Source: a virus. From it: DNA of 64,000 bases. The notes under the pieces are model-generated. The model was not told the DNA's origin. It did not search any database and worked only from the letters and a program-made list of their open reading frames with translations. Location of the stretch: the IMG/VR virus record IMGVR_UViG_3300042892_002840, positions 1 to 64,000 of that record; one strand, given 5' to 3'. Shown here in pieces: positions 35,529-50,469 of this stretch (position 1 is the first letter of the stretch; every line of letters begins with the position of its first letter). The translations under genes were made by a program, and so were the position numbers.

Positions 35529-36257
35529 CTATTCATATTTCTTTAGAGATCGAACGGTTTGCTTGTATGCACCGCCGTCTTTTGTTCTAAACTTTTTTGC
35601 CTGAGCATTGTGTCTTTCTTGCAAAGAAACAAGGTCATGAAATTTTGGCTCCATTTTCCACTCTTCTCTTTTATATGGAATTAGCTGAAGGTAAGGAGTT
35701 CCTTTTGGAACCTTACCCTCAAAGTCATTCCTTAAGAAAAACGGTATAAGACCTGGAGTATTCATCTTATCATTATCTATTATAGCAGAGGTGGTTATAA
35801 ACGGTAAATCAAATCTGTTGATTGGATTTACATATAAAACGCTATATCCATCTGGAACCTCTGGTGCCCAATTAGGATACCAGTGGAAGTGTCTGTCTAG
35901 GTATCCGTGTGGAACTGGAAACTCATTCATAGGGGCTCTTGACCCAACAAAATCTTCGTATCCTGGTTCTGGTATTGCTATCATCTCACCATTTGGCAGT
36001 TTGCTAAAAACAATATCGCATGGGGTTACATAAAAATATCCAGTGATAAATATATCAAGTAAACCTGGGCAAGACTTAAAGCTTCTTACTAGTCCACCTT
36101 CAGGGTTGGGCCAGTACTCTCCTGTCTGCTTGTTAAGCTCAAACTTGTCTGCTTTTTTAAACCATTCTGGAGTTAAATTTCTTGCTGGCTTTGGCTGATA
36201 TTCTTCGCTTATAATGTTGTACAGCCTATTAGAATGAAATTTTATTTTATTGCTCAT
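35529..36257 (-). CDS. DUF6065-like protein of unknown function
   Basis: KSCPG..D...GY..TPCD, NRFDLPF, GTPYLQLIPYKRE; paralog of 39473..40204. Confidence 0.6.
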   Translation of the reverse strand: MSNKIKFHSNRLYNIISEEYQPKPARNLTPEWFKKADKFELNKQTGEYWPNPEGGLVRSFKSCPGLLDIFITGYFYVTPCDIVFSKLPNGEMIAIPEPGYEDFVGSRAPMNEFPVPHGYLDRHFHWYPNWAPEVPDGYSVLYVNPINRFDLPFITTSAIIDNDKMNTPGLIPFFLRNDFEGKVPKGTPYLQLIPYKREEWKMEPKFHDLVSLQERHNAQAKKFRTKDGGAYKQTVRSLKKYE

Positions 36258-36945
36258 TTGTTTTTAACCTAATTACCTTTAGCTCGTGTTCACCTATTTT
36301 GTTGCCTAGATGATCTGTTGCATTCCTATAAAAGCCAGCCCACTTACCCTGCTGATTAATTCTTTCTGCTGTCTCTCCATATTCTCTTCCATCAAATTGA
36401 GCACCGACGTAATCCTTACCGTCGTGTAAATTAATTTCAGAATTATTTAATTCAGACAAAGTAATTGGGAGTATGGCAGCTACTGGTGTATTTGCTGGTA
36501 TTGTTATAATCTTTCCTGGGGAAGTTATTCTCCAAACAACTGGAATCTCGCCTGAAAAAAATGATGTTGTTAATAGCGTAGTAAATGCTTGAGCTCCATC
36601 TATAAATTGATTTGGAACTGGCATAATAAGAGTTGTTGTCTCCAAGTTAGTCTTAAAGGTTAGCCCTGTCCTAAAGCTTATTGTTCCATTTGCTCTATTT
36701 GTGTGACAATAATTTTCTCCAGAAAGAACCTTTACATGATCTGGGCTGCTATTAGAAATGCCATCCCATATAAAAGAAATATCTTCTGGAAAAGAAATTC
36801 CCCATCCTAGTTGATTTGCAAGGCTTACTGGAAAACAATTGTAGGCGTGTCTATCTACAGTATTTTCCATCCAGTCTCTCTTTACAGAAAGCTGGGATAT
36901 CTCCCCTGGATTTTTATCAGCCTTATAAACCTCTATTTTATGCAT
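36247..36945 (-). CDS. DUF6065 family protein
   Basis: RDWM...HAYNCFPVSLANQLGW signature. Confidence 0.7.
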   Translation of the reverse strand: MHKIEVYKADKNPGEISQLSVKRDWMENTVDRHAYNCFPVSLANQLGWGISFPEDISFIWDGISNSSPDHVKVLSGENYCHTNRANGTISFRTGLTFKTNLETTTLIMPVPNQFIDGAQAFTTLLTTSFFSGEIPVVWRITSPGKIITIPANTPVAAILPITLSELNNSEINLHDGKDYVGAQFDGREYGETAERINQQGKWAGFYRNATDHLGNKIGEHELKVIRLKTNEQ

Positions 36946-39000: not shown

Positions 39001-39473
39001 ATAAACATCCTGTAGTAGGGCCTAATAAACCATTTTGGAGTAATAGGATTTACATGCATCTTCCATATTATTGCAAATGCATAGGTGTCGTTATTAAAAT
39101 TATTTAAATATGATTCTCCATTTTTAATAACAAATGTGCTGTTTTCATATTCACCATTTAAATATGTTAGAGTCTGACAAAATGTGTCTTCGTCAAACTT
39201 AGCATTCTCTATATTTCCATTAATTTTTAAAATTTGATAATAAAATGGAAACACTTTTTCTGAAACATTATGGTTGTCGTATATTATTTGCTGAACAGAT
39301 AGCCCAGTCTCTTCGACAATTCTAGCTGAGTGCCTATGTATTTTATACATCATCTCGCCATCAATTCTATTTTCTGTCCACAGCTTTGGCTGTTTAGAAA
39401 GGTTCCATTGATCTAATGATATTAGTACTTCTTTGTAAGGGTCAAGCAAAGAAGATGGTATGTGTGTGTACAT
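38997..39473 (-). CDS. degenerate oxygenase-like protein lacking the HxD/H triad
   Basis: TYLNGEYE resembles the YLNDDYEGG motif, but no HxD is present. Confidence 0.5.
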   Translation of the reverse strand: MYTHIPSSLLDPYKEVLISLDQWNLSKQPKLWTENRIDGEMMYKIHRHSARIVEETGLSVQQIIYDNHNVSEKVFPFYYQILKINGNIENAKFDEDTFCQTLTYLNGEYENSTFVIKNGESYLNNFNNDTYAFAIIWKMHVNPITPKWFIRPYYRMFM

Positions 39474-40204
39474 TACTTATACTCTCTTCTTTCCCAAAAC
39501 TTATCCTTATATACTCCGCCATCTGGCTTTCTAAATATCTTTCTTGTTTTTATAATTCTATCATATATATCGCCAGCCTTGTCTATCTGCAATTCTGATT
39601 CCCAATTTTCTCTTTTGAATGGTATTATTTGTGCATATGGGGTGCCAGCTGGTATTACTCCTAGCCAACCTTCAATTAAAAAAAATGGCAAAGATCCTGG
39701 CATAGAAACTTTATCTGTATCTATAATCCCAGATGTGTTGATAAACGGTAAATCAAATCTATTCATTGGCGTTATATACAGAGAGCTATAGCCGTCTGGA
39801 GTTTTAATTCCCCAGTCAGACATCCAAGCAAAGGATTCTTTTCTATATCCTAATGGCGTGGGAAATCCAGAGAGCGGATGCCTTATTTCACAAAAGTCTT
39901 CATATTTTGAATCTTCTATTTTTACATCTATTTCTAAGTTTTCATTAATAAAAAATTCAATATCACATGGTGTTTTTAATACATATCCTGTTGTAAATGC
40001 ATCAAGTAAAGCTGGACAACCTTTCCATGTTGCCATCTTTCCACCATCTGAGTCTAAAACATATTCATTTTTTTCATTTTTAAAAAATCTATCTGCAATA
40101 CTATACCATTTTGGAATAAATTTAGATGTTGGCATTGGGCTGCTTATGCTTGACTTATTCAGCCAATGCCTATTAGCAATAAATGTTATTAGGCTTGCTT
40201 TCAT
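39473..40204 (-). CDS. DUF6065-like protein of unknown function
   Basis: KGCPA..D...GY..TPCD, NRFDLPF, GTPYAQIIPFKRE. Confidence 0.6.
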   Translation of the reverse strand: MKASLITFIANRHWLNKSSISSPMPTSKFIPKWYSIADRFFKNEKNEYVLDSDGGKMATWKGCPALLDAFTTGYVLKTPCDIEFFINENLEIDVKIEDSKYEDFCEIRHPLSGFPTPLGYRKESFAWMSDWGIKTPDGYSSLYITPMNRFDLPFINTSGIIDTDKVSMPGSLPFFLIEGWLGVIPAGTPYAQIIPFKRENWESELQIDKAGDIYDRIIKTRKIFRKPDGGVYKDKFWERREYK

Positions 40205-40911
40205 TACTGTGTCTTAAGAAATGAATTTGTTTTAGCCCCTTGAGAACTAACAACATGGCCTCTGTCTGTATAATCAAGCATTGTAACTACTGAATACTTG
40301 GTTCCGCTTGTTACTGGCATGGCTCTATGTGGGTACATAAAATTAGATGGGAATACAACAAGGTCCCCCTCTGAAGGATTATACATTATGTCTTGAAGCC
40401 TAAAATATAATTCCCCTCCATCATAATCGTCGTTAATGTATCCTACAAGAGATACAGTGGATGTGTAAGAAAAACCATGGTCCGTGTGCTCTTGGAAATG
40501 CTGACCCTCATGATATCTGATAAAATTCATTACTTCCCAGTACTGTAACTCGCTTATATTGTACATTAAACAATAATCTTTTACGGCTTCAGACATTACG
40601 TCGTAGCATTGTTGCCACATATCTTTTAAAATTTCAGTTCCTTCATCTGTATTATGAAGGTCATCTTTTCTAAATTTAAAGTCAACACAGTCTCTGTAGT
40701 CTGGCTTTTTAAATCCGTATCCTACTGTTGCTTCTCTCCATTTATATGGGTTAAGCGTTGATCCTAAAACAGACTCTATTTTATTTATAATTCCTATATC
40801 TTTTTTTAAAAGATTTTTATAAACAACTATACCTGGAGCGAGAATTTCTTTCTCGCTCCAGGTTTTAGTTATAGAGTTAGGATCAATTAATTTAGGTCCT
40901 ATTGTTGACAA
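40204..40911 (-). CDS. 2OG-Fe(II) oxygenase, prolyl-4-hydroxylase-like
   Basis: HTD, YINDDYDGG, PH, K (GTKYS); paralog of 36938..37636. Confidence 0.9.
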   Translation of the reverse strand: MSTIGPKLIDPNSITKTWSEKEILAPGIVVYKNLLKKDIGIINKIESVLGSTLNPYKWREATVGYGFKKPDYRDCVDFKFRKDDLHNTDEGTEILKDMWQQCYDVMSEAVKDYCLMYNISELQYWEVMNFIRYHEGQHFQEHTDHGFSYTSTVSLVGYINDDYDGGELYFRLQDIMYNPSEGDLVVFPSNFMYPHRAMPVTSGTKYSVVTMLDYTDRGHVVSSQGAKTNSFLKTQ

Positions 40912-40934: not shown

Positions 40935-42254
40935 TTACTTATTATGTATAAGTAATCCGCTGACAAAGAACCAGTCGTATGGTTCGCAAGAAAGTTGATA
41001 AACGCTTGTTGGTGCTTCATTTGAATACTTAATGTCTTCTATAGGGACTTCAGTCATTAGACCGTTTGAGTCTACAACAATTAAGTTTTCTCCAATTTCA
41101 GCATAGTAAGATTCTTTAATCTTATACTGTCCGTCAGATGTTTTAACGAATATAGGCTGAGTAAATGTCATTCTGATGTCAGTGTTTCCATTAAAGTACA
41201 TAATATCTGACTCTTGAGTTTCAATTATTTCAGTAATTGTTGTTTCAACAAATTGTCCTAAAGATAATGCATCTGAATTCCATGTCGAGAACTGATATGA
41301 ATCTGGTGTAGTTGGATCAATTTGATTGATCACTACAGACTTAATCTTGTCTCCGACCTGTAAGAACTTAGCTGGTACTTGACCATCCATTGTATCTACA
41401 AGTGTGTTTTCTTCTACACAAGGAGGTCCAAACCAAGGGATGAAGTAAAAGCTTGGAGGTGCAAAGAACCCTGGGGGCGAGAAGAACCCTGGAGGCGAGA
41501 AGAACCCTGGAGGTGCGAAGAACCCTGGAGGTGCGAAGAACCCTGGGGGCGAAAAGAACCCTGGAGGTGCAAAGAACCCTGGGGGCGAGAAGAACCCTGG
41601 AGGTGCGAAGAACCCTGGGGGCGAAAAGAACCCTGGAGGGCTAAAGAATGAAGGTGGTGAGAAGAAGGTTGTAATGCTATTTGATGGAGATGATGTTTCA
41701 CCATTACCGTTAGCATTAGCTGCATAGACTGTATATGTCTGTGCGGTTCCTTGTTCTTGAGATACAGATACTGATGTAGATGCTGTGCTTCCAGATTTTC
41801 CGTCTGATGATGCCCAGTAGTATGCTGTTATTGCTGATCCACCATTTGCTGGTGCTGACCAAGACACTACGTCTGTTCCTGCAGATGATGATGATGCTGA
41901 AGGAGCACCAACCTGTGCTGGAACCGTTGTAGGTGTTGTGGCGTTTGATGTGGTTGTAAGACCATTACCAACTGCATTAGATGGAGTTATTGTGAATGTG
42001 TATGATGTTCCACCAGCTAGTCCTGTGAAGGAAAACGAGGTAGAAGATGTTGTTTTTGTTGTTGTTGCTGGACTTGACACTATTGTATATAGTGTTGCTG
42101 CTGGTGAATCGGATGGAAGCGTCCAAGCTAGGTTCGCTGAACCGTTATTGAACGCCCCTCCGTTAACACCAGTGGCAGTAAATCCAGTAACAGCCTTTGG
42201 CTCTAGGAAGTTATCCTGAGCTGAAGACTTAATACCGATTTTCTTATTTGCCAT
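40935..42254 (-). CDS. FN3-FN3-(FFxPPG)12-Hint domain protein
   Basis: Two FN3 patterns, 12 hexapeptide repeats, then CVEENTLV...LQVGD...GLLIHNK Hint domain. Confidence 0.85.
   Translation of the reverse strand: MANKKIGIKSSAQDNFLEPKAVTGFTATGVNGGAFNNGSANLAWTLPSDSPAATLYTIVSSPATTTKTTSSTSFSFTGLAGGTSYTFTITPSNAVGNGLTTTSNATTPTTVPAQVGAPSASSSSAGTDVVSWSAPANGGSAITAYYWASSDGKSGSTASTSVSVSQEQGTAQTYTVYAANANGNGETSSPSNSITTFFSPPSFFSPPGFFSPPGFFAPPGFFSPPGFFAPPGFFSPPGFFAPPGFFAPPGFFSPPGFFSPPGFFAPPSFYFIPWFGPPCVEENTLVDTMDGQVPAKFLQVGDKIKSVVINQIDPTTPDSYQFSTWNSDALSLGQFVETTITEIIETQESDIMYFNGNTDIRMTFTQPIFVKTSDGQYKIKESYYAEIGENLIVVDSNGLMTEVPIEDIKYSNEAPTSVYQLSCEPYDWFFVSGLLIHNK
41337..41444. repeat. 108-bp exact repeat, copy 1 (copy 2 at 48250..48357)
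   Basis: Base-by-base identity; encodes FIPWFGPPCVEE...GDKIKS. Confidence 0.95.
41451..41666 (-). repeat. coding tandem repeat, 12 x 18 bp, FF[S/A]PP[G/S]
   Basis: Counted from DNA and protein. Confidence 0.95.
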
Positions 42255-42280: not shown

Positions 42281-44095
42281 TTAAGCTGAAAGGTCTCCGA
42301 CAAGCACCCAAGTATTTGCCGCTCTCTTGATGAGAGTTGCTGATGACCATTGTGCACGAAGCTTTAATCCTGGAGTTGCATTTACTGTAACTCCACCTGC
42401 TGCTGCAACATCTACTGCGCCTGCTCCCACTCTCAGAACATCTAGGGATGTACCGATTGGGAATGCAACTGCTGCATCTGTTGGAATTGTTACTGTTGTT
42501 GCAGAAGCTGAGTTCATTTCAATCATTGAGTCTTTTTCATTGACTGATGAAAGAGTGTAGCTTGCTGTCTTCTGTGAAATTGGTGTAGCAGAAGGAACCT
42601 TGCCAGCTAACGCTGTTGTTACAGTAGCTGCGTAGTTTGCGTCATCTCCAAGTGCTGCTGCTAATTCATCAAGTGTGTTTAGCGCTGCTGGTGCTGATGC
42701 AATTACTGCATTCACCTGTGCTGTTGCATCTGCAATAGCTTCTGACTTAGCTGTTGCAATTGCTGTAGCCTGTGCTGAAGATACTGGCTTATTAGCATCT
42801 GATGTATTGTCAACGTTTCCTAGGCCAAGTGTAGTTGCTGTGACAGCTGCTACTTCTGACTTAAGTGCTAGAAGTGATGTATCTGAAATTCCGTGTACAT
42901 TTGTTGTATCTGAGTTGTGATCTGATACCTTTGTGTCAGCAGCTGTTGCTGCTGCTGTAATAGCTTCTGACTTAGCATTTGCTGCCTTTGTTGTAGCATC
43001 TGCTGCTGCTGCTGAAACTGCACCATCTGCTTTAGTTGTAGCGTCTGCTGCTGCTGTAGCTAGTGCAGTTGTAATCGCTGAGTCACGATCTGCAACTGTT
43101 GAAATTACAGTCTGGTCAACGCTAAGTGTTAATAGGTTTCCTGCATCGTCATATACTCTTCCAAGACCGTTTCCAGCAGTAACCTGAATCATTCCTGCTG
43201 CTGTATCTTGAATTAGCTCTGCAGCATTTGCCTGAGAAACGTATGTTGTTGATGCGTTGTTAATTGTTAAATATGTGCTTGCAGCATCTGTCTTTGCAAG
43301 GTAGTCGGCATCATTGAGTGCCTTATTCTGATAGCTTGCTTCTAGAGCTGTTGTTGTGACGTATCCTTCAATTGAAGCACCAGCTGGAATTGTTACTGTT
43401 CCAGTAAATGTTGGTGATGCGATTGTTGCCTTTGTTGCTAAAGCAGATGTTACTGTTGTAGCGTAGTTAGCATCATTAGCTATTGCTGTTGCAAGCTCAT
43501 TAATTGTATCTAGGGCCTCTGGAGCTCCGTTTACAAGTGTTTGAAGTGATGCATCTACATATGTGCGTGTAGCAACTGTTGAGTTAATTGCAATTGCACC
43601 TGTTGTATTGTCGTATGAAATTCCTGTTCCGCCTGAGAGCTTTGCTCTAACTGATGCGTCTGAAATTTGATCCGCAAGGACCTTTGCGTTTGCATCAAGT
43701 GATGCTACACCAAAAGCTACACCCTTATCGGCTTCTGGAACATATGTTCCATCAGCTGAGTTAGATAGTGCAGTAACTGCGTTATCTACGTAATCTCTAT
43801 TTGCCCATACTGTATCACTAATTTCAATAGTAATTGTATTTGCACCATCGTTGTATGTCTTTGTAAGACCAGTTCCAACTACGAGTGCTGAGTTAATTGC
43901 ATCTTGTGCAATTTCTGTAACTCCTGGGGTATCTGATGCGCCGTATGAAAGTGTATTCCATGCTCCTGTACCATTACCAAATTTAAACTTATTACTATCT
44001 GTCTCATATCCCATTTCACCTGCGGCTAATACTGGGTTTACTGAAGACCAGTCTGCTGCCAGACCTCTTCTTACTTGAATTCTTACTGTTGACAT
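42281..44095 (-). CDS. fibre protein with Mtd_N-like N-terminus
   Basis: RIQVRRG..W...NPVLAAGEMGYETD; APEALDTINELA motifs; Ala-rich heptads. Confidence 0.8.
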   Translation of the reverse strand: MSTVRIQVRRGLAADWSSVNPVLAAGEMGYETDSNKFKFGNGTGAWNTLSYGASDTPGVTEIAQDAINSALVVGTGLTKTYNDGANTITIEISDTVWANRDYVDNAVTALSNSADGTYVPEADKGVAFGVASLDANAKVLADQISDASVRAKLSGGTGISYDNTTGAIAINSTVATRTYVDASLQTLVNGAPEALDTINELATAIANDANYATTVTSALATKATIASPTFTGTVTIPAGASIEGYVTTTALEASYQNKALNDADYLAKTDAASTYLTINNASTTYVSQANAAELIQDTAAGMIQVTAGNGLGRVYDDAGNLLTLSVDQTVISTVADRDSAITTALATAAADATTKADGAVSAAAADATTKAANAKSEAITAAATAADTKVSDHNSDTTNVHGISDTSLLALKSEVAAVTATTLGLGNVDNTSDANKPVSSAQATAIATAKSEAIADATAQVNAVIASAPAALNTLDELAAALGDDANYAATVTTALAGKVPSATPISQKTASYTLSSVNEKDSMIEMNSASATTVTIPTDAAVAFPIGTSLDVLRVGAGAVDVAAAGGVTVNATPGLKLRAQWSSATLIKRAANTWVLVGDLSA

Positions 44096-46644: not shown

Positions 46645-47829
46645 TTAAGACGGAATAAAACCAGAAGGCAGTCCTTTTATTACACGCTCTTCTAATTCAC
46701 CAGTTGAGAAGTGTATGCCAGAATACCTTTCAAAATCTTCAAGTGTTCTCTCTGCAAATAAGCCATTTACTGGATCAATCTTGTTTTTAACTATAATCTG
46801 CTGAAAGTAAGACTTCGATGCATTATGTCTTGGATAAAATTCTTCTGGAAAGTCGTCCCAAAACAAGACTCTGTCTGGTCTACCGTATCTATGATACACG
46901 AATACTTTTCTTGGAGTTACTAGATTGTAACCCGCTGTAAAAAACCTAAGTGCCATAAGTGGCTCTTCCTCAGTAAATGTAACTTCATCTACAAATGGCA
47001 CAGATTCAATTACTGTTTTTTCAGTAAAGAAAAAGTGGCCAGACAAATAGGGGGAAAGCACATTTGTTTCTGGGTTAGTGTATTGTGGGGTAAACTGAGG
47101 AACAAGAGTAGACTTAAAATGTGCAATGTTTGACTCTGACATAAAGAATGTTGGATTAGCCTCACATTCCTGAAGTTCGTCATTTCCATTTTCATCTACT
47201 GTATATGGTGGTACATATGCTGTAAATACAAGTTCATCAAAGTTTTGCTTGGCATAGTTATACTCTTTAATTAATTCTGTATCCCACCCAGATATTGATC
47301 TCATGTGGGAGTCCATGTTAAGATAGTAGTCTTGGTTGTTATAAAACTTGTGAGAATTCTTCCTAGCAGGCTGGCAACCAATAATTGATCCAGGATTTAA
47401 TGAATCAACTGACACATTTTTTCTTTTTGATGCTTCTGCTATATTAAAATCTATGTCATCATCCTGAATAGTTAATCCAAAATACACTCTATCTGGAAAC
47501 TCAGCATTCTTTAAGAAGTTATCTACTGTGGTCCAAATCTCTGGGTCTTTATATGATGGAATATTGATAAATATAGTAGCTTCATTCTGTATCATAAGCA
47601 ATTCCATTTCTTTTTCTGTTACTGGATCTTCTCCGCCCCATTTATGAATAGGGCATTCTGCTAACTGCAATTTGGTTTTGAATTTCATAAAACAACCACA
47701 CTTTTTACATTGCTTGGTTGTATTAATAAACTCTGGGCATGCCTTGCATATCTCATATCTTGATTTAGCAAGATCTGGAGTGGCATATTGACTATTAGGG
47801 TTTAATAGGTCCCATGGCTTTACTGACAT
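46645..47829 (-). CDS. Gnt1/GT60-like (hydroxyproline) polypeptide GlcNAc-transferase with N-terminal Cys-rich domain
   Basis: TIFINIPSYKDPE, YYLNMDSHMR..GWD, FTEEE, VYHRY match the Skp1 Gnt1-type pattern (IFV.I.SYRD.E...QIDSHMRF..WD); N-terminal six-Cys domain ending CPIHKW. Confidence 0.8.
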   Translation of the reverse strand: MSVKPWDLLNPNSQYATPDLAKSRYEICKACPEFINTTKQCKKCGCFMKFKTKLQLAECPIHKWGGEDPVTEKEMELLMIQNEATIFINIPSYKDPEIWTTVDNFLKNAEFPDRVYFGLTIQDDDIDFNIAEASKRKNVSVDSLNPGSIIGCQPARKNSHKFYNNQDYYLNMDSHMRSISGWDTELIKEYNYAKQNFDELVFTAYVPPYTVDENGNDELQECEANPTFFMSESNIAHFKSTLVPQFTPQYTNPETNVLSPYLSGHFFFTEKTVIESVPFVDEVTFTEEEPLMALRFFTAGYNLVTPRKVFVYHRYGRPDRVLFWDDFPEEFYPRHNASKSYFQQIIVKNKIDPVNGLFAERTLEDFERYSGIHFSTGELEERVIKGLPSGFIPS

Positions 47830-47847
47830 ATATATATGATATCATTT

Positions 47848-50469
47848 TTACTTGTTGTGGACAAGCATGCCATTTACAAAGAACCAGTCATATGGTTCAC
47901 AAGAGAACTGATATACATTTACAGTCTCGTTTGCCATAAACTCTATCTTATTAACAATAGTTTCATTAATTGTTCCATCAGAATTAACAGTTATTAAATA
48001 TTCTCCACGCTCAACATAATATGCCTCTTTAATCTTATATTTACCGTCTAGGGTTTTAACAAAAACTGGCTGAGTATATGTCATTCTTGTATCAACATCA
48101 TCGTTAAAATATAATATGTCAGATTCTTGTGTTTCAATAATATCTGTTATTGTTGTTTCAACAAATTCATTAACGGATAAGTTGTCTGAAGACCATGTTG
48201 AGAATTGATAAGAGTCTGGTGTGGACGCATCTATTTCATCAATTACTATAGACTTAATCTTGTCTCCGACCTGTAAGAACTTAGCTGGTACTTGACCATC
48301 CATTGTATCTACAAGTGTGTTTTCTTCTACACAAGGAGGTCCAAACCAAGGGATGAATACAAAGCTTGGGGGTGCGAAGAACCCTGGAGGAGAAAAGAAT
48401 CCTGGAGGAGAAAAGAACCCTGGAGGTGCGAAGAACCCTGGAGGGCTAAAGAACCCTGGAGGTGCAAAGAAACTTGGAGGGCCAAATGCTAAAGCTCCTC
48501 CACAGCATGACCAGCCTGAAGGAACATTGTATACATCAGATCCACCAAGACGTGAATAGCCAAGCTCTGAACATGTGTAAGAAGTTGGATTTGTTATTGT
48601 TCCAGGACAATCTTGTTTTGTTGGTGTAGGAGTTGGTGTAGGAGTTGGTGTAGGAGTTGCTGTAGGATTTGGTGGTGTTGGGGTTGCAGTTGGTGTTGGG
48701 GTAGGTGTCGGAGTTGGTGTAGGAAGCGCTCCTCCACAGCATGACCAGCCGCTTGGTACATTGTAAGCATCAGATCCGCCAAGTCTTGTATATCCTAATT
48801 CTGAACATGTAGAAGACACTGGATTGGTTATAGTTCCAGGGCAGTCTTGTAAAGGTGTTGGGGTGGGCGTTGGAGTTGGAGTAGGTGTTGGAGTTGGGGT
48901 TGCAGTTGGTGTTGGGGTAACTGTTGGATCACAAGCAGCAGCTGCAGCATCCCGTAATGCAGCCGCATAGGTTGTTCTATAAACTGTTTTTACTGTTCCG
49001 TTAACGTTATAAACCGATGTATCTGCAGGAATTCCTGTTGTATTTGTAGTTGGTCCAGAAGCTGAAGGTGCAGACACATATTCTCCGCTAGTACCCTTGC
49101 ATGTAGATGTTCCAGTGTAGTAAACATATGTTGTTGGGGTTGCAGTTGGTGTTGGGGTAGGTGTAATTGTTGGATCACAAGCGGAGTTTCCTGCATCCAC
49201 AAGGGCGGCAGAATAAGTCGTTCTATAAACTGTTTTAATGCTTACTGTTCCATCAAGTACCTGTGTATCTTGTGGAAGAGTGTTGCCTTCTGCAACAAAT
49301 GGGCCAGTAACTGAAGGAGATGCGGAATAAACTCCACTGAATCCATTACATCTAGAGACTCCAGTGTAATAGCTTACTCCAGTTAAAGTAGTGAATTCGA
49401 CAGTATTCGATGTCCAGGATGTCTCATCAAAATTTGGTGTTGTTCCAGATGCTACAACTTTATACCTATATGTTTCTCCAGCTGTTAGGAATGTTATTGG
49501 AATTGTATTAGTTGTTCCTGAGTCATTTCCTGCTGGCAAAGAAGATCCATCTGGGTTTACCCAGTAAAGCTGCCAGCCATTTTGAGTAAAGTTAGATGTA
49601 GACCATGAAAGTGTTGCTGTGGTTTGTCCGATATCTGAAACTGATAAAACTACAGTTGGATCAAATGGTTTCATATCTGGGACAACATATTCTTTATAGG
49701 CGCCTTGAAGAGGCTGTCCTGTTGCTTGAAAATAAGGGTTGTTTGTGTTTTGTGAAGCAATATAAACTAACAATGGACCATCTGCTTTACCTAAAAGACT
49801 TTCAAATGGAGCTATTGATGAAACTAAAGATGTGGTTTCATAAGCAGTTTGATTTTCTACTGAATCAACAATCTTTTCGTTTTGAATTCCTGCTCCTACA
49901 AAATAAATTTTAAATTTATTTGCACTTGGAACCCTTAACCATCTTAAATTAACTTTGCTATTTTCTGGAACAGTAGCATCTATATATATTACATCTTGTG
50001 GCTTTACTAAATAGTCATTGAGTCCAGCTAAAAGGTTATTGCCATTTACGTAAACTGGTTCGCTATCACCAAACTCATTTGTTGCCACAACTTTACACCT
50101 AAGAACATATCCTACCATTTGCTTATCAATATAAGAAGAATTGTTATTTGAACCAAAATCAATCCATGTTGCATTTGTATAATCATTTGAAATCAAGTAT
50201 GCAGCTTTTTGCCAAGTATATCTGTAAGAGGTTGGTGTATTTGTCCATGTGCCGCTTGTAATTGTTACAAACTGATCTGCCATTCGATTATTATTTTGCC
50301 AATTAAAAACTGGAGATTCTGTAAGAACTGGGACAGCAGCCCCAAACTTTTTCCATTCAGTTCCATCGAAAACATAAGATGCCTTTGAATCAACCCATGA
50401 AGAACCGTCATGTATCTTGATTTTCTTTAATGGCTTCCATTCGGATCCATCAAATATATTTAAAGGCAT
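47848..50469 (-). CDS. multidomain Ig/FN3 + PT-rich + Cys-repeat + (FFxPPG)6 + Hint protein
   Basis: GTWTNTPTSYRYTWQ Ig-like motif, FN3, TPTPTP tracts, two duplicated Cys modules, CVEENTLV...GMLVHNK. Confidence 0.85.
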   Translation of the reverse strand: MPLNIFDGSEWKPLKKIKIHDGSSWVDSKASYVFDGTEWKKFGAAVPVLTESPVFNWQNNNRMADQFVTITSGTWTNTPTSYRYTWQKAAYLISNDYTNATWIDFGSNNNSSYIDKQMVGYVLRCKVVATNEFGDSEPVYVNGNNLLAGLNDYLVKPQDVIYIDATVPENSKVNLRWLRVPSANKFKIYFVGAGIQNEKIVDSVENQTAYETTSLVSSIAPFESLLGKADGPLLVYIASQNTNNPYFQATGQPLQGAYKEYVVPDMKPFDPTVVLSVSDIGQTTATLSWSTSNFTQNGWQLYWVNPDGSSLPAGNDSGTTNTIPITFLTAGETYRYKVVASGTTPNFDETSWTSNTVEFTTLTGVSYYTGVSRCNGFSGVYSASPSVTGPFVAEGNTLPQDTQVLDGTVSIKTVYRTTYSAALVDAGNSACDPTITPTPTPTATPTTYVYYTGTSTCKGTSGEYVSAPSASGPTTNTTGIPADTSVYNVNGTVKTVYRTTYAAALRDAAAAACDPTVTPTPTATPTPTPTPTPTPTPTPLQDCPGTITNPVSSTCSELGYTRLGGSDAYNVPSGWSCCGGALPTPTPTPTPTPTATPTPPNPTATPTPTPTPTPTPTKQDCPGTITNPTSYTCSELGYSRLGGSDVYNVPSGWSCCGGALAFGPPSFFAPPGFFSPPGFFAPPGFFSPPGFFSPPGFFAPPSFVFIPWFGPPCVEENTLVDTMDGQVPAKFLQVGDKIKSIVIDEIDASTPDSYQFSTWSSDNLSVNEFVETTITDIIETQESDILYFNDDVDTRMTYTQPVFVKTLDGKYKIKEAYYVERGEYLITVNSDGTINETIVNKIEFMANETVNVYQFSCEPYDWFFVNGMLVHNK
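48250..48357. repeat. 108-bp exact repeat, copy 2
   Basis: Identical to 41337..41444. Confidence 0.95.
48364..48471 (-). repeat. coding tandem repeat, 6 x 18 bp, FF[S/A]PP[G/S]
   Basis: Counted from DNA and protein; preceded by degenerate AFGPPS. Confidence 0.95.

Follow-up and report, generated by a model that had tools for sequence, protein, structure and literature searches.

A Hint-fold domain closes two repeat-bearing fibre-like proteins of an uncultured tailed phage and is a candidate self-removing cap

Hint domains have been described in inteins, Hedgehog signalling, BIL domains and polymorphic toxins. Here we describe two further copies, each forming the last 161 amino acids (aa) of a repeat-bearing, fibre-like phage protein, in a 64,000-nucleotide (nt) stretch of viral DNA (positions 1 to 64,000 of IMG/VR record IMGVR_UViG_3300042892_002840; hereafter the window) that belongs to a 97-kb uncultured virus contig, ~86% complete by estimate. 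The domains have a predicted Hint fold, resemble type-A BIL domains most closely by sequence profile, and are members of a large phage family in which the putative catalytic residues are conserved in a way that points to retained chemistry. Our leading, if tentative, reading is that they are active, domesticated, type-A-BIL-like caps that remove themselves from fibre C-termini, in cis and once. A phage lineage carrying a Hint domain at the very end of virion fibre proteins would be a new setting for thioester-based processing.

Both Hint-bearing open reading frames (ORFs; genes 1 and 2, Table 1) lie co-oriented on the minus strand within the fibre region of a tailed-phage structural module, where portal, protease and major-capsid genes are found at 25–29 kb, tail genes at 4–20 kb and several fibre-like genes at 31–53 kb. 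Gene 1 encodes, in order, two FN3-like domains (Pfam fn3, E 2.8e-9 in this region), 12 FF[S/A]PP[G/S] hexapeptide repeats (at the DNA level the 18-nt periodic repeat family D1), the heptapeptide IPWFGPP, the Hint domain, Lys and the stop codon, and its 12-repeat tract is the predicted N-flank, or cargo, of Hint 1. Gene 2 runs through N-terminal domains, an FN3-like domain, Cys-containing modules with (TP)n linkers and 6 repeats to the same closing series of IPWFGPP, Hint, Lys and stop. A first-pass annotation, made from the sequence without database searches, had proposed that two repeat proteins each close in a 161-aa C-terminal domain that starts GPP/CVEENTLV (the slash marks the junction), has Pro at −1 and T[F/Y]TQ in place of the block-B TxxH, and ends HN-K-stop, and the ORF translations bear out each of these particulars. 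CVEENTLVDT directly follows IPWFGPP in both copies, so that the Cys1 expected of the superfamily (Cys or Ser at residue 1) is present in each; in block B, TFTQ in Hint 1 and TYTQ in Hint 2, both followed by Pro, Thr85 is kept and Gln88 occupies the His position. The record holds exactly two copies, and no third was found in either the window or the whole 97 kb. The two domains align without gaps at 70% aa identity. A 108-nt tract that runs from the final repeat residues through IPWFGPP into the first 28 codons of the Hint is identical in the two genes while the remaining Hint DNA is only ~72% identical, and recent gene conversion between the copies is thus probable.

The Pfam Hint models considered (Hint_2, PF13403; Intein_splicing, PF14890; PT-HINT, PF07591; Hint, PF01079) gave sub-threshold matches that were split between the ends of the domain, with Hint_2 on residues 1–27 (E 0.07) and Intein_splicing on the last ~70 residues (E 0.006), and we therefore built the family. 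A profile of 28 close homologues matched the P. horikoshii CDC21 intein and the C. thermocellum BIL at ~1e-4, setting T-F-T-Q-P on the T-P-T-H-P and T-F-D-H-P of these proteins, as the first-pass reading of block B had it, and the terminal HN on the intein HN. With 69 sequences the match to 2lwy, the C. thermocellum BIL, improved to E 1.1e-12 and some dozen inteins were matched at 1e-8 to 1e-5, and 33 of the 69 members matched Intein_splicing at E ≤ 0.01. The same 69-sequence alignment yielded an AlphaFold2 model with a predicted local distance difference test score (pLDDT) of 95.2 and a predicted template modelling score of 0.89; the shallow 28-sequence alignment gave a pLDDT of 48, and only the larger set produced a usable model. 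Foldseek searches with this model returned, at probability 1.0, BIL2 of Tetrahymena (6y75/6tmm), 2lwy, many inteins and Hedgehog (1at0). In VIA alignments the model superimposed on BIL2 with Z 17.0 and a root-mean-square deviation (rmsd) of 1.9 Å over 132 residues, and on BIL, intein and Hedgehog structures generally with Z 15–17 and rmsd ~2 Å, the three classes being tied within 1. Model residues 1–161 map to BIL2 residues 1–144, which places Cys1 and Asn160 at the two catalytic termini. Judging from the predicted structure, the domain is a true Hint (Hedgehog/intein) fold, and the identification in the first-pass annotation, which was made to depend on such a fold being found by profile or structure search, holds.

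Among characterized systems, the C. thermocellum type-A BIL is the best profile match and a tied-best structure (Z 16.9; ~22% identity). Likenesses include Cys1 and the terminal His-Asn, no Cys, Ser or Thr at +1, no endonuclease, and residence in variable, non-essential, surface-type proteins. The phage domain differs in having Gln for both the block-B His and the block-F Asp and Pro at −1, in a C-flank of one Lys and a stop instead of host protein on both sides, and in being phage-encoded, behind aromatic/Pro repeats and beside proline-hydroxylase-like and glycosyltransferase genes. BIL outscores the inteins by profile (1.1e-12 versus ~1e-8), with structural Z tied within 1, and on this sequence evidence the domain is best called a phage-specific, C-terminal, Lys-ended Hint lineage most like type-A BILs. 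The top structural match, BIL2 of the Tetrahymena thermophila BUBL1 locus (Foldseek E 4.8e-7, termini aligned, 17–20% identity), uses a Lys ε-amine as acceptor and forms an isopeptide product (PMC8616854), which makes the +1 Lys of the phage domain suggestive. BIL2 nevertheless sits between two ubiquitin-like domains, keeps its block-B His (H69) and is zinc-regulated, whereas the phage domain lacks a C-terminal domain and is followed by one Lys only. The Hedgehog/Hog domain (1at0, Z 16.7) is likewise a C-terminal Hint that detaches from, and modifies, N-terminal cargo via a Cys1 thioester, but it has a Gly-Cys-Phe junction, TxxH, a post-Hint sterol-recognition region and no terminal His-Asn, whereas the phage domain ends His-Asn-Lys without an adduct-recognition region.

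Cultured representatives of the family are distant ones only, namely the Hint domains of jumbo-phage tail proteins (phage NCTB BN7874_136 and BN7874_132, Dickeya phage AD1 gp108, Erwinia Alexandravirus and PHROG 38766; 27–30% identity). The NCTB proteins read GGGG/C...T-x-Q-H...HN-A-tail (TEQH in BN7874_136, TQQH in BN7874_132) and carry the GenBank note 'contains intein domain'; AD1 gp108 and its Erwinia relatives, which match PHROG 38766 and are annotated 'virion structural protein', combine collagen-like repeats with SG/C...THEH...HN/T plus 9 residues. Unlike the window proteins, all of these keep TxxH, follow Gly runs or collagen-like repeats, have tails of 7–10 residues (+1 Ala or Thr) and lack FFxPPG repeats. 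We found no experimental study of the NCTB, AD1 or Erwinia Hint proteins and, in searches on intein-like or Hint domains of phage tail fibres or structural proteins, no paper describing or testing the present family; the phiCbK, CBB and PaBG literature yielded terminase inteins only. A Megablast search of the 10.5-kb region against GenBank phages gave no match, and Phage NCTB was the only match to the Hint domain by tblastn, while some uncultured-phage relatives are already labelled 'Hint domain containing protein' in UniProt/BFVD.

Several patterns among the active-site residues bear on activity. Cys1 is invariant in 28 of 28 aligned close homologues, an alignment that has 51 invariant columns across the whole domain. 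The same result was obtained when viral contigs were scanned for IPWFGPP-coding DNA with a sequence pattern only, so that Hint similarity played no part in the choice: of 48 sites, 42 continued into Cys and a Hint domain, the other 6 lay in unrelated contexts, and each pattern-retrieved copy that reached its end on the contig closed in HNK-stop. The ratio of non-synonymous to synonymous substitution rates (dN/dS) across the domain is 0.05–0.18, with synonymous sites near saturation, and the domain is under purifying selection.

In the family at large, residue 1 is either Cys or Ser, and the third position after the block-B Thr/Ser is His in 68, Gln in 57 and Glu in 7 of 133 non-redundant sequences (85% identity filter). 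These states require 11–13 changes on the family tree, and the well-supported branches by themselves demand 5 each for His and Gln; the tree alignment kept the block-B trait column and dropped the adjacent Pro column, which can bias the count only towards fewer inferred changes. Because Gln is common in the family and was exchanged with His or Glu at least 11 times, the sequences indicate that it is a recurrent, long-lived state and not an oddity of this phage; of the first-pass view of an atypical active site, the substitution itself stands, but within the family Gln is about as common as His. Gln (78 sequences) and Glu (7) occur only with Cys1, and all ~48 Ser1 sequences (a count that takes in those starting S[IV]GA) keep His, although these counts are not phylogenetically independent. 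The pattern would fit a weaker Ser nucleophile that needs His where a thiol does not. Deep Gln clades still keep Cys1 and His-Asn, and Gln looks like a working substitute for the block-B His. We also considered whether the −1 residue compensates for the loss of this His, as in PMC6333167, and found no association: G, P, K, R, S, Y and F occur with Gln, and G, A, Y, N and P with His. The −1 Pro, also noted at first pass, is present but clade-specific; outside the window clade and a small number of others the residue is G, K, R, S, Y, F, A, N or L, and it does not track the His/Gln state.

At the other end of the domain, none of the 164 sequences with a terminal [H/Y/W/C/N][N/D] pair stops at the Asn or Asp itself, the tail after the pair is a single residue in 75, and that residue is Lys in all 75. 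The 12 sequences without the terminal Asn also lack the penultimate His. Since the peptide bond after Asn, which Asn cyclisation needs, is universally kept, these sequences argue that the C-terminal reaction, or at least the geometry of the junction, is under selection. The first-pass label 'non-splicing' consequently went further than the data allow, as His-Asn and one following residue are retained under selection and a sister clade, described below, has both the full set of splice residues and a C-extein; the accompanying claim that there is no C-extein nucleophile is correct for Cys, Ser and Thr at +1, but the lone flanking Lys does bear an amine.

These patterns also bear on whether the Hint is catalytically dead and persists as a structural or binding tip or folding nucleus, with Cys1 and His-Asn in structural roles. 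Such a domain would sit well with the two Gln substitutions, the −1 Pro, the sub-threshold Pfam scores, the 'virion structural protein' annotation of the cultured jumbo-phage relatives, and conservation spread over the whole domain, as expected of a part with a lasting role. A structural Cys at the first residue, however, would not be expected to alternate with Ser alone, co-vary with block B, or stay invariant through at least 11 His/Gln switches, and conservation focused on the termini (Cys1, Thr/Ser85, and His-Asn with one residue more) is characteristic of Hint chemistry. Moreover, tips that bind receptors usually vary, whereas the Hint is the most conserved part of these proteins. We therefore regard a dead domain as doubtful, though it is the most credible of the alternatives.

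The breadth of the family provides a further line of evidence. An exhaustive search of 1.8 billion cluster representatives returned 180 matches at E ≤ 0.001, 54 of them at E ≤ 1e-10, a family of at least 180 clusters at 50% identity, and the close set comprises 39 loci on viral contigs. Of 150 relatives among the matches listed, nearly all carry the Hint at their extreme C-terminus, and the segment just before it is almost always an aromatic/proline repeat (FFxPPG, FFPP, FGFTP or YTFTP). The N-terminal parts vary (FN3, PASTA-like and Cys-rich modules, (TP)n or Thr/Ala linkers) and look like interchangeable surface-binding modules; PASTA domains were seen in the variable part of 12 of 69 members (best E 1.1e-9) and FN3 in others, BFVD A0A6J5NY54 being an example of such PASTA/FN3-bearing relatives. 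Three groups can be told apart. Group (i), the window clade, reads IPWFGPP/C, TxTQ and HNK-stop. Group (ii) reads (FGFTP)n-.../C with SxxQ or SxxH and ends in HNK-stop or in HN plus a short tail; it includes a sub-clade without His-Asn that ends ...V-I-[S/A]-stop and still keeps Cys1 and [ST]xxQ. Group (iii), the Ser1 clade, reads (FGFTP)n-K/S[IV]GA[DE]T with [ST]xxH and a His-Asp/Ser end, and has a conserved 35–45-aa tail after that Ser (motif ...LDAMYQQW[RK]...), and with it the full splice-type residue set. This sister clade looks splice-competent and may join its repeat tract onto the tail; its loci are L067–L104 (for example L070:4511-5830 and L069:3946-6699), some contigs carrying two such genes.

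On the basis of the modelled fold, homology, residue conservation, family distribution and synteny set out above, we infer the following chemical steps for the favoured self-removing cap. Cys279 of gene 1 (Cys713 of gene 2) would attack the carbonyl of Pro(−1), and an N-S acyl shift would give a prolyl thioester, with Thr85 and Gln88 standing in for the usual Thr/His pair. The thioester would then be resolved, most simply by water, an outcome that we offer as a best guess and a little short of even confidence, to free a mature fibre ending ...IPWFGPP and an 18-kDa Hint. The FF[S/A]PPG tract would next be open to the adjacent proline hydroxylases and glycosyltransferase. Retention of His159-Asn160 and Lys161 could mean either that Asn cyclisation still operates at the C-junction or that these residues aid the first step. 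Precedent comes from type-A BILs, which have Cys1 and His-Asn but no +1 nucleophile, form an N-terminal thioester, cyclise Asn and predominantly cleave (PMC4031507). Loss of the block-B His need not preclude the N-S acyl shift, because compensations are documented in natural and engineered cases (PMC6333167). Peptidase S74-type chaperones of tail spikes and fibres, C-terminal domains that are removed autocatalytically after assembly, are a functional analogy only, as they have an unrelated fold and a Ser-Lys dyad and gave no sequence or structure match here.

Several points weigh against this reading. Both the block-B His (Gln88) and the block-F Asp (F:4 equivalent, Gln142) are replaced, and the best Pfam scores fall under the gathering thresholds (16.7 versus 35.8 bits for Intein_splicing, 14 versus 28.4 for Hint_2). 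By analogy with prolyl thioesters, which ligate slowly (PMC5458133), Pro at −1 would be an unfavourable acyl donor, and the same slow reactivity suggests that the intermediate in the window clade may be long-lived or conditional. Cap removal alone would also leave the strict His-Asn plus one Lys unexplained, given that one clade lives without them, and autoprocessing activity across the family is only predicted.

An alternative is that the Hint is active but its thioester is coupled instead of hydrolysed. In one version, the acyl group would pass to the ε- or α-amine of the +1 Lys while Asn160 cyclises, so that the fibre ends in a peptide- or isopeptide-linked Lys; in another, a Lys or other nucleophile of a second virion component would take it, anchoring the variable N-terminal domains covalently, much as Hedgehog is joined to cholesterol. 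The invariant Lys of the one-residue tails, the preserved scissile bond and the joint loss of His and Asn in one clade all speak for coupling, and so do the isopeptide chemistry of BIL2, ligation by type-A BILs through the freed C-flank amine (PMC4031507), and the nucleophilic +1 residues of sister clades (Ser after His-Asp; Thr in AD1 gp108). The conserved module is C-terminal and the N-terminal domains variable, as for an anchoring end, and a slow prolyl thioester could resist hydrolysis while awaiting its acceptor. On the other hand, a single added Lys could simply be gene-encoded and seems pointless in itself, any acceptor is hypothetical, in many relatives the +1 residue is not a nucleophile (L, I, Y, A, G, V or F), and the Lys could have a structural or charge role instead. 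We consider coupling in general rather unlikely. Its more specific form, an undescribed Lys-dependent, splicing-like reaction in which the +1 Lys or a virion-protein Lys takes the prolyl thioester and Asn160 cyclises, we rate slightly lower still. If true, the hydroxyproline-type fibre would carry an isopeptide-linked Lys at its end or be fixed covalently to the particle, and phages would have an equivalent of BIL2 'ubiquitination by splicing' or Hedgehog lipidation; coupling of the fibre to Lys or to another protein would amount to an ATP-free protein ligation system of obvious tool value.

Finally, an ordinary selfish mini-intein near the end of a fibre gene would share the Hint fold, Cys1 and terminal His-Asn, and phages often carry inteins. 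Yet there is no Cys, Ser or Thr at +1, the C-extein would be one residue long, there is no homing endonuclease, and the domain is found in the same place in hundreds of divergent proteins with differing N-terminal parts, where it is kept as a module with the repeat tract; no intein-free alleles of the host gene were found. We judge this origin highly improbable. Two specific intein classes were rejected as well: class 1, as +1 is Lys followed by a stop and the host proteins vary in their N-terminal parts, and class 3, as Cys1 is present, F:4 is Gln142, and Cys145 lies off F:4 and is Ala in relatives P0007 and P0008.

If the favoured cap is removed as proposed, the exposed repeats would have candidate modifying enzymes close at hand (Table 1). 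The oxygenase, the first gene of a cluster, starts 24 nt after gene 1, and the N-acetylglucosamine (GlcNAc)-transferase-like gene starts 19 nt after gene 2. In 39 of 39 close loci such genes begin within tens of bases after the Hint stop codon, in one of two arrangements: a cluster of 2-oxoglutarate (2OG)-Fe(II) oxygenase genes resembling prolyl 4-hydroxylase (P4H) and of DUF6065-like genes, or a GlcNAc-transferase-like gene, in some loci preceded by a small oxygenase. In the wider family, including the Ser1 clade, DUF6065-like genes and often oxygenases lie 1–2 kb downstream. As repeat-Hint proteins and enzyme genes travel together, the repeat tract is a likely substrate of the adjacent oxygenases or transferase, and the link suggests multi-step maturation of a new type of phage surface glycoprotein.

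Table 1. Positions of the two Hint-bearing genes, their parts and adjacent enzyme genes in the window
Feature	Position	Strand	Basis or remark
Gene 1, 439-aa fibre-like protein	40935-42254	-	ORF list and translation
12 FF[S/A]PP[G/S] repeats, gene 1 aa 197-268	41451-41666	-	Regular expression on translation
IPWFGPP junction, gene 1 aa 272-278	41421-41441	-	Pro278 is the −1 residue; invariant in window clade
Hint domain 1, gene 1 aa 279-439	40938-41420	-	161 aa; profile and AlphaFold2/Foldseek/VIA
Hint 1 Cys1 codon	41418-41420	-	
Hint 1 T85-F-T-Q88 codons	41157-41168	-	
Hint 1 Gln88 codon	41157-41159	-	
Hint 1 His159-Asn160-Lys161 codons	40938-40946	-	
Hint 1 Lys161 codon	40938-40940	-	
Gene 1 stop codon	40935-40937	-	
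Gene 2, 873-aa fibre-like protein	47848-50469	-	ORF list, translation and Pfam
6 FF[S/A]PP[G/S] repeats, gene 2 aa 667-702	48364-48471	-	Regular expression on translation
IPWFGPP junction, gene 2 aa 706-712	48334-48354	-	
Hint domain 2, gene 2 aa 713-873	47851-48333	-	161 aa
Hint 2 Cys1 codon	48331-48333	-	
Hint 2 T-Y-T-Q codons	48070-48081	-	
Hint 2 Gln88 codon	48070-48072	-	
Hint 2 H-N-K codons	47851-47859	-	
Hint 2 Lys161 codon	47851-47853	-	
108-nt tract, identical to 48250-48357	41337-41444	.	Base-by-base comparison
2OG-Fe(II) oxygenase (P4H-like)	40204-40911	-	Pfam 2OG-FeII_Oxy_3, E 4.6e-14
GlcNAc-transferase-like gene (PF11397)	46645-47829	-	Pfam GlcNAc, E 7.3e-41

Whatever their chemistry, these proteins provide the intein field with natural mechanistic controls, including Cys1 with Gln or Glu for the 'essential' block-B His, Ser1 only with His, His-Asn plus exactly one Lys, a clade without His-Asn and a sister clade with full splice residues. 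Newly added by this analysis are the count of His/Gln switches, the restriction of Gln and Glu to Cys1 proteins, the rule that no member stops at its terminal Asn or Asp, the splice-competent-looking Ser1 sister clade and the pattern-based test of Cys1 invariance.

DUF6065(-like) genes of the window lie at 36247-36945, 39473-40204 and 35529-36257 (all minus strand), and others occur at L066–L115; in the distant Ser1 clade they are present while oxygenase matches are weak or absent within the flank, and they may be the most constant partner of repeat-Hint proteins. Between the two Hint genes lies a 604-aa, Ala/Thr-rich fibre gene (42281-44095, minus strand) that starts with Mtd_N, the Major tropism determinant N-terminal domain (E 1.7e-13).

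Variants on the usual single C-terminal Hint were also seen. P0119 (1003 aa) has four tandem Hint units joined ...VHNK/GCF... by Lys-Gly linkers, and P0040, P0042, P0052, P0059, P0072, P0080 and P0114 share a conserved tail of 12–19 residues beyond His-Asn, marked by [FY][QH]G[PLI]TxxD; as a locus query, P0042 gave a partial N-terminal match only. Small ORFs overlapping, or directly after, the stops of clade-B Hint genes (L043:6845-7498, L044:6921-7283, L052:6734-7420 and L064:6337-6924) have no Cys1 and align with the Hint profile over its N-terminal half only, and NCTB gp135 (L040:6480-6941) is a separate Hint-like protein of 154 aa ending HNKVD; such ORFs may be Hint copies that are dead or act as partners. 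Three viral contigs each encode a minus-strand ORF that ends in ...ITELIPWFGPPPPPLPARG-stop (L120:4569-4588, L128:3790-3809 and L137:869-888), the junction heptapeptide without a Hint, and may reflect chance or a Hint-less relative. The only match in 185,579 species genomes was L041 (JBJTNS010000209.1), an 8.8-kb contig of a Chitinophagaceae metagenome-assembled genome (MAG) whose 690-aa protein ends IPWFGPP/C...HNK; oxygenase-like and GlcNAc-transferase-like genes come after it. The contig is probably that of a phage, placed in the MAG by binning, which makes it a weak hint of a Bacteroidota host.

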